A stretch of DNA of 64,000 bases from Eledone cirrhosa (taxonomy: Eukaryota), in the NCBI GenBank assembly GCA_964016885.1, contig OZ024747.1:39680001-39744000 (forward strand). The letters run 5' to 3'. Position numbers and translations under genes: made by a program. Below, piece after piece: positions 29,786 through 30,729 of the stretch. Numbering within the stretch: position 1 is the stretch's first letter; the number at the start of each line of letters is the position of its first letter. The notes beneath the pieces are model-generated. The model saw only the letters and a program-made list of their open reading frames with translations, did not search any database and was not told where the DNA came from.

Positions 29786-30729
29786 ATTAGTACATCTACC
29801 AACATATGTGTACAGATGTACACTCATGCTAGCAAATATATAAGTTATGTCTTAGTACCTATGGGGTTCTATGCAGGTGAATGCAGAACAATTATATGAA
29901 AGACGTAAAATAAGAAAAATTTTAAAAATTAAAAATCAACTTAGTTACTAAAATTTTCACTCCAACTAATTAGTTTCTGTAATGGGATATATATAGTTAC
30001 ATAATATATATAACTATAGAGAATTCATTACGTCATCAGTGAGTCTATTCTCCGCTAAGTTCCCAGGCAATGCGCGGACACTAGGAACCCATATAAAAAT
30101 ATTAATTCAGTAGATGGAATGAAGCTAGCGAGGACTAAATTCCGGAGTACTGAAAAAATGTCACTGCCTCTGGTCAGTGGTAGATTCTAAAGAATCAATC
30201 ACGTGACACCGAGGTTAATCAGTTAGGAGCGGTGTGGTATTATGACAAGAGCCTACTACTACCATGAAACAGCAGTAAATTTTGGCAAGTTTTGCTCAAC
30301 AAATAATTTGGAGATAATATAGAGAATTAGTACATCTACCAACATATGTGTACAGATGTACACTCATGCTAGCAAATATATAAGTTATGTCTTAGTACCT
30401 ATGTGGTTCTATGCAGGTGAATGCAGAACAATTATATGAAAGACGTAAAATAAGAAAATTTTAAAAATTAAAAATCAACTTAGTTACTAAAATTTTCACT
30501 CAAACTAATTAGTTTCTGTAATGGGATAAATATAGTTACATAATATATATAACTATAGAGAATTCATTACGTCATCAGGGAGTCTATTCTCAGATAAGTT
30601 CCCAGGCAATGCGCGGACGCTAGGAACCCATATAAAATATTAATTCAGTAGATGGAATGAAGCTAGCAAGGACTAAATTCCGGAGCACTGAAAAAATTTC
30701 ACTGCTTCTGGTCAATGGTAGATTCTAAA
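29783..30729 (-). repeat. About 539 bp tandem repeat (about 1.75 units) with one hammerhead per unit
   Basis: HHRs at 29959-30044 and 30498-30583: CUGAUGA-CGUAAUG..CAUUACA-GAAA-CUAAUUAG-UU. Confidence 0.88.

Follow-up and report, generated by a model that had tools for sequence, protein, structure and literature searches.

A hammerhead retrozyme family of Penelope type in Eledone cirrhosa, and a reciprocal stem I match that probably arose by chance

Introduction

Non-LTR retrozymes are ORF-less tandem repeats that carry hammerhead ribozymes. The animal ones have been proposed to derive from Penelope-like elements and to be non-autonomous (Cervera and de la Pena 2020, PMC7229834; Li, Clavereau and Pollet 2026, preprint 10.64898/2026.07.22.740005). 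Penelope-like elements are described as inserting at (TA)n targets, as partial tandems with truncated arms in inverse orientation and a tail that is often one-sided (Craig et al. 2021, PMC8557442), and in vitro work has described two internal start sites of reverse transcription, with both strands cut and extended (Frangieh et al. 2024, PMC11167929). For hammerheads, it has already been published that a palindromic helix III lets them act as dimers and that an additional base can stand between positions 9 and 10.1 (PMC4209133; PMC6765202). In the sections of the published work that we drew on, double-hammerhead action has so far been supported in vitro or by structure.

Here we analyze an insertion within a 64-kb stretch of the Eledone cirrhosa genome (the window, to which all plain coordinates refer), in which an earlier note had described neighboring hammerheads whose stem I strands pair better when exchanged. 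We find that the motifs are real, that the element is of a known kind, and that a dimeric mode of action is likely and already published. The exchanged pairing itself is of little import if it arose by chance; read as the trace of a heterodimer it would, if true, show from genome sequence that dimeric hammerheads and multimeric circles are active in vivo while the element retrotransposes. The family also allows two open points to be counted from DNA: how insertion ends are made, and whether the template is a monomer circle, a mixed circle or an uncut multimer.

Two hammerhead motifs in a 539-nt tandem unit

Two type I hammerhead motifs lie on the minus strand, 539 nt apart. The upstream motif (30498..30583) reads ACTCC-CTGATGA from 30583 and GAAACTAATTAG-TT/TGAGT to 30498; its stem I is ACUCC/UGAGU, with C2.1 at 30579 and U1.1 at 30502, and its predicted cut falls between 30503 and 30502. 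The downstream motif (29959..30044) reads ACTCA-CTGATGA from 30044 and GAAACTAATTAG-TT/GGAGT to 29959, giving a stem I of ACUCA/GGAGU with A2.1 at 30040 and G1.1 at 29963, and a predicted cut between 29964 and 29963. Both share the core CUGAUGA, GAAA, a UU cut site and a 6-bp helix II with one additional base per side (GUAAUG/CAUUAC in the upstream motif, flanked by an extra C and an extra A), and their helices I-III follow the type I order around a core of the form CUGANGA ... GAAA ... UH. Helix III, ACUAAUUAGU, is a perfect palindrome in both. Set against published palindromic-helix-III hammerheads, as the consulted parts of those papers describe them, the palindrome here measures 10 nt and an extra A also stands between 11.1 and 12.

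The earlier note had read the locus correctly in its 539-nt tandem spacing, its palindrome and its stem I. Each motif taken singly is mismatched at the core-closing pair 2.1-1.1, with C.U upstream (30579/30502) and A.G downstream (30040/29963), and exchanging the partners yields complete 5-bp matches in both ACUCC/GGAGU and ACUCA/UGAGU.

Rfam returned no hammerhead match in the 64-kb window at the gathering score, nor between 29700 and 30800 at E<=5; its seven weak hits belonged to unrelated families and fell mostly on AT-rich or microsatellite stretches. This miss is probably due to the long loop II and the short helix III. The motifs are well beyond chance, with thousands of genomic copies against 0 matches to a reversed control pattern; the swapped match, unlike the motifs, is not clearly beyond chance.

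The surrounding insertion spans about 960 bp (29781-30743), or about 1.75 units, with microsatellite on both sides. Read along the minus strand, it opens with a 5'-truncated partial unit (30503..30729, unit positions 312-539) that has C2.1 as in the family. This is followed by one complete 539-nt unit, running from one predicted cut site to the next (29964..30502), which bears U1.1, A2.1 and 4-5 further private changes, and by a downstream partial unit (29781..29963, positions 1-182) that has the family-typical G1.1 and stops at what we term the tailed 3' end of the family. A very short inverted arm of 13 nt on the plus strand (30731..30743) matches the position 70 3' end of the family and runs into (TA)n. 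The flanking microsatellites are (TA)n plus (AG)n at the downstream insertion end (29622..29785) and (AT)n plus (AG)n at the upstream end (30739..30837). The middle unit folds well (z = -5.9), GC content is 33%, and the longest stop-free stretch in the element is 43 aa. The element is an ORF-less tandem repeat of about 540 bp of the non-LTR retrozyme type.

A large retrozyme family

Copies of this family number in the thousands in the 3-Gb genome, with 2962 candidates at first look and at least 2487 exact matches to the 3' half and at least 3938 to the 5' half of the motif. Like animal non-LTR retrozymes as presented in the sources consulted, it consists of many dispersed arrays of low-GC, ORF-less tandem units, every unit having a single type I hammerhead. 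The 539-bp unit exceeds the 150-450 bp given in PMC7229834 and lies within the 51-972 bp of 10.64898/2026.07.22.740005. These two sources also describe, in the parts consulted, a weak helix III that requires dimers in some animal retrozyme families, with which the window family may be compared, and a mismatch at the base of helix II in one axolotl family. Linear and circular unit-length RNAs characterize retrozymes; the window family is described here from DNA.

The family norm is C2.1-G1.1. Among 3938 exact-context matches, position 2.1 is C in 3879, T in 34, A in 13 (one of them a chance match without a motif) and G in 12; among 2487 such matches, position 1.1 is G in 2433, A in 28 (8 of them in one satellite cluster), T in 23 and C in 3. 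Helix II differs between subfamilies in a compensatory manner (GTAATG/CATTAC, GTAAGG/CCTTAC, GCAATG/CATTGC, GGAATG/CATTCC), and one subfamily carries a compensatory helix I, CTTCC/GGAAG in place of ACTCC/GGAGT; subfamily motifs were chosen for pairing, so this list shows which pairs occur and is no test against chance. U1.1 is present in several helix II subfamilies, indicating that it arose repeatedly.

Several mutational features of the family stand beside these counts. G>T changes number 23 at position 1.1, the first base after the predicted cut, against 4 at 1.2 family-wide (P 0.0003), an excess attributable either to slippage in the T run or to reverse transcriptase error in crossing joined ends. 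Changes at unit positions 9, 20-23, 41, 343 and 347 (A>C, GTAA loss, A>T) recur per unit within arrays at about 9-17%; these are hot spots, possibly of copying error. A big satellite-like cluster of the family at G000:C5 ~84.64-84.73 Mb has variants repeating at multi-kb periods, and it was excluded from the relaxed partner, array-column and insertion-end counts.

Insertion ends and mobilization

To the extent that the consulted sections of PMC8557442 and PMC11167929 describe Penelope-like architecture, the window family resembles it in its one-sided tail, its (TA)n microsatellite target, and its partial tandems accompanied by a 5'-truncated copy in inverse orientation. The tail measures about 112 nt, compared with 30-40 nt in Penelope-like elements. 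We delimited 186 insertion clusters in 189 regions of the genome (G000, L001-L218), of which 111 are two-ended with outward 3'-type ends and 75 have a truncated or unclassified end; short arms were called by an 11-12-nt motif with one mismatch allowed, and the loci are a non-random sample. In 111/111 two-ended insertions one end lies near unit position 70 and the other near 182, in opposite orientation, and no 70/70 or 182/182 pair occurs among them. The window copy obeys this rule through its 13-nt inverted arm. Scored ends adjoin a microsatellite in 282/290 cases (full-length-scored).

Every scored two-ended insertion therefore has exactly one tailed and one tail-less end, which would be explicable by one start site per target strand. 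This rule sharpens the published statement that the tail often stands at one end only, and it differs from the in vitro results of Frangieh et al. (PMC11167929), whose consulted sections describe strands without a difference in start site. In a limited look at titles and opening abstract lines we found no report of such a count.

Remnants of Penelope-like proteins from the window have matches in 31/189 regions, 3 of them within 150 nt of a unit. No autonomous partner is joined to a unit in the 189 regions, and the 3 nearest matches all lie beyond a microsatellite or an insertion end. The family is a large, fairly young example of a non-autonomous Penelope-type retrozyme.

Folding and dimer action

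Folded on itself as a hairpin, helix III is predicted to be unstable (+1.5 kcal/mol), whereas two copies are predicted to form a stable duplex (-9.0 kcal/mol). Stem I duplexes have computed energies of -5.4 and -3.7 kcal/mol when swapped against -2.9 and -3.5 kcal/mol unswapped, and cofolding of both motifs gives a swapped dimer in which each 5' stem I strand pairs with the 3' strand of the other motif. This fold agrees with the domain-swapped double hammerhead that the earlier note had proposed, but the reciprocal substitutions are no evidence for it: a typical C-G/C-G pair of motifs reaches -22.9 kcal/mol as a swapped dimer, compared with -21.1 kcal/mol for the window pair, while homo-pairs of the window motifs reach -16.3 and -17.5. 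In these models the swap repairs damage yet brings no gain over the family norm. Because helix III is palindromic, dimer action, a mode already published for motifs of this sort, is likely for the whole family.

Stem I pairing across units

The earlier note had proposed, as a check, asking whether positions 2.1 and 1.1 covary across rather than within hammerheads. The other 22 U1.1 and 11 A2.1 exact-context copies have no matching change, either within the motif or across units. Joining by coordinate produced three same-strand double variants at 2.1/1.1: the window locus, C4:42510649 and C3:48226972. The second is also reciprocal, with A1.1 upstream and U2.1 downstream (L083/L138, G000:C4:42510649 and 42510185), and belongs to a different subfamily; the third (G000:C3:48226972) has U2.1-A1.1 inside a single motif. 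Thus 3/3 double variants are Watson-Crick, two across units and one within a motif. The number of pairs at risk, scaled from 72 C1 places (partner in the same motif 43, downstream 7, upstream 6), is estimated at about 1485 same-motif, 242 downstream and 207 upstream, for which 0.19, 0.031 and 0.027 Watson-Crick double variants are expected, respectively.

Pair 2.2/1.2, taken as a replicate, yielded 42 variants at position 1.2 and 132 at 2.2; of the latter, 100 were listed and 86 entered the join once the C5 cluster had been excluded. The exact-context join gave 2 same-motif double variants, 0 of them Watson-Crick, and 0 across units.

Relaxed partner matching on the fetched loci, a set enriched in variants by design, covered 138 pairs across units, 110 in the reverse direction and 370 within motifs. 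Among tandem pairs, upstream 1.1 variants are accompanied by a downstream 2.1 variant in 2/12 cases, both Watson-Crick and one of them the window locus, leaving 10/12 upstream 1.1 variants and 9/11 downstream 2.1 variants uncompensated. Compensation is seen in 0/11 cases in the reverse direction; for pair 2.2/1.2 it is seen in 0/5 across and 0/5 reverse, with 4 double variants within motifs, 1 of them Watson-Crick. Pairs 3-5 of stem I, for which variants are too few, yielded no double variants.

One reciprocal case besides the index locus has P 0.03-0.09 when pair 1 is taken in the same direction alone (0.03 expected); pooled over two pairs and both directions, 0.16-0.42 reciprocal cases are expected and P(>=1) is 0.14-0.34. 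The L083 case is a weak residual signal, not covariation. At these two pairs stem I does not covary across neighboring motifs rather than within them, which is largely the outcome that the earlier note had named as counting against its reading. Titles and opening abstract lines, in a limited look, contained no report of across-unit stem I covariation.

Origin of the window array

Array-private letters at unit position 20 are common to units 2 and 3, and those at positions 322 and 401 to units 1 and 2, indicating that the three segments descend from one template. The outer segments retain C2.1 and G1.1, and from these letters we conclude that the template had C2.1 and G1.1. Private changes amount to 6-7/539 nt in the middle unit, 6/228 in the upstream part and 1/182 in the downstream part; rare changes in 40 close units average 0.88% (range 0-1.7%). 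The position-20 letter recurs at 4 other loci, all from other subfamilies, and no sister of the window array is among them. Two candidate histories were set aside. A circle of the middle monomer was rejected as the template because it would give A-U in both motifs, and the outer partial units bear family letters; the earlier note's remark that this monomer, once circularized, would rebuild a perfect hammerhead thus stands as a statement of what it could form, but not as history. The other, repair by fold-back of ACTCA onto TGAGT over a distance of 460 nt, was dropped because a stem of 5 bp would be too weak.

In our reading the swapped stem I match most likely reflects two decay mutations that came together by chance in the middle unit. 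The earlier note had allowed for chance given only two substitutions, and chance is now favored, both changes being rare and private to that unit. Coincidence is made cheaper by the mild hot spot for G1.1>U (about 6x G1.2>T), and, with several further hammerhead families in the window, a scan could have picked out a match in many more pairs. The insertion itself was likely copied into a (TA)n microsatellite by the enzyme of a Penelope-like element. Multi-unit transcripts would be cut by hammerheads working as dimers via the palindromic helix III, and two internal start sites, each giving rise to one insertion end, would serve for the reverse transcription of unit-length RNA, circular or as an uncut multimer. 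Reverse transcription crossing the cut site more than once would leave arrays of initially alike units, which would later collect private changes at about 1% per site.

An unlikely alternative is that the template of the array was a heterodimeric RNA circle, in which a normal monomer was joined to a variant that compensates itself (U1.1...A2.1). In double-hammerhead geometry the 5' end of each monomer would lie beside the 3' end of the other, such that cross-ligation would create the swapped pattern and reverse transcription an X-B-X order, which the window pattern fits. The cofold preference for the swapped dimer and the second reciprocal case at L083 agree with this, and the consulted part of PMC7229834 describes retrozyme RNAs that are multimeric as well as dimers made by a ligase. 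But such a circle requires a source of compensated monomers, and none occurs among the 23 U1.1 and 12 A2.1 exact-context copies or the 4 position-20 matches. The two X segments do not overlap, hence their identity is not comparable.

Multi-unit arrays bear on the same alternative. Because arrays cross the cut site several times, their template would be circular, an uncut multimer, or successive RNAs. We examined 6 arrays with at least three full units and 11 with two. L135 (1434-4830; G000:C1 ~199.063-199.066 Mb) has five full units plus partial ends, in 6-7 segments, and alternates strictly at 3 columns (AGAGAGA, TCTCTC, AGAGAG), a pattern explained either by a dimeric template or by duplications with a two-unit shift. 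A single column alternates in each of L134 and L140, and L133 has a broken period of 3. The period-2 patterns would favor a heterodimeric circle, but post-insertion duplication does occur and can mimic them: adjacent units of L137 differ at 1 site, pointing to recent duplication of neighbors, and L133 is hierarchical. In the 11 two-full-unit arrays the middle segment is the odd one out in 29/114 cases, so that its variants show no excess and no general heterodimer signature. On these column patterns, mixed dimeric templates are possible in a minority of arrays. We think it improbable that heterodimeric RNA circles, joined in the geometry of a double hammerhead, left some retrozyme arrays as their fossils. 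It is similarly doubtful that each monomer in such a circle would keep its own stem I while the ends were ligated crosswise and a Penelope-like reverse transcriptase rolled round it, and we give little credence to the window locus and L083 as swapped-stem footprints and L135 as an ABABAB footprint.

An assembly error at either or both of the variant bases is very unlikely. No piece from three contig sets and one RAD run spans the locus, though the family is present at high depth, and at 30040 the family letter appears in 388/398 reads of run X9, but these reads are drawn from all copies of the family and carry no information on a single locus. The middle unit bears a load of private changes similar to that of other units, and U1.1 and A2.1 both occur elsewhere at ordinary frequencies. 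Hardly credible is the proposal that the compensated monomer, which does fold with its own stem I closed, was the circular template or was kept by selection at the locus to form an active circle, as this predicts U1.1 in the downstream and A2.1 in the upstream partial unit, both of which show family letters, and no descendant of the monomer is seen among the exact-context copies and position-20 loci.

Other elements in the window

Type I hammerhead motifs of other families are present in the window at 17172(-), 17731(+), 28215(-), 48109(+), 50862(-), 52245(+), 53631(+) and 60453(-), most with a palindromic helix III of their own (ACTAGT, ACCATGGT, ATGATCAT, ATGCGCAT). Another, read by eye at about 29290(-), sits in a 188-bp tandem at 29035-29410. 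Decayed frames resembling Penelope-like retroelements lie at 4409-5041, 7039-7940, 11869-13644, 21030-22817, 23414-24423, 56298-56987 and 61564-62642; a GIY-YIG domain scores above the Pfam cut-off at 7530-7940 and reverse transcriptase plus GIY-YIG below it at 11869-13644, the other frames being recognized by eye. Remnants of non-LTR reverse transcriptases occupy 2493-3626 and 39241-42737.
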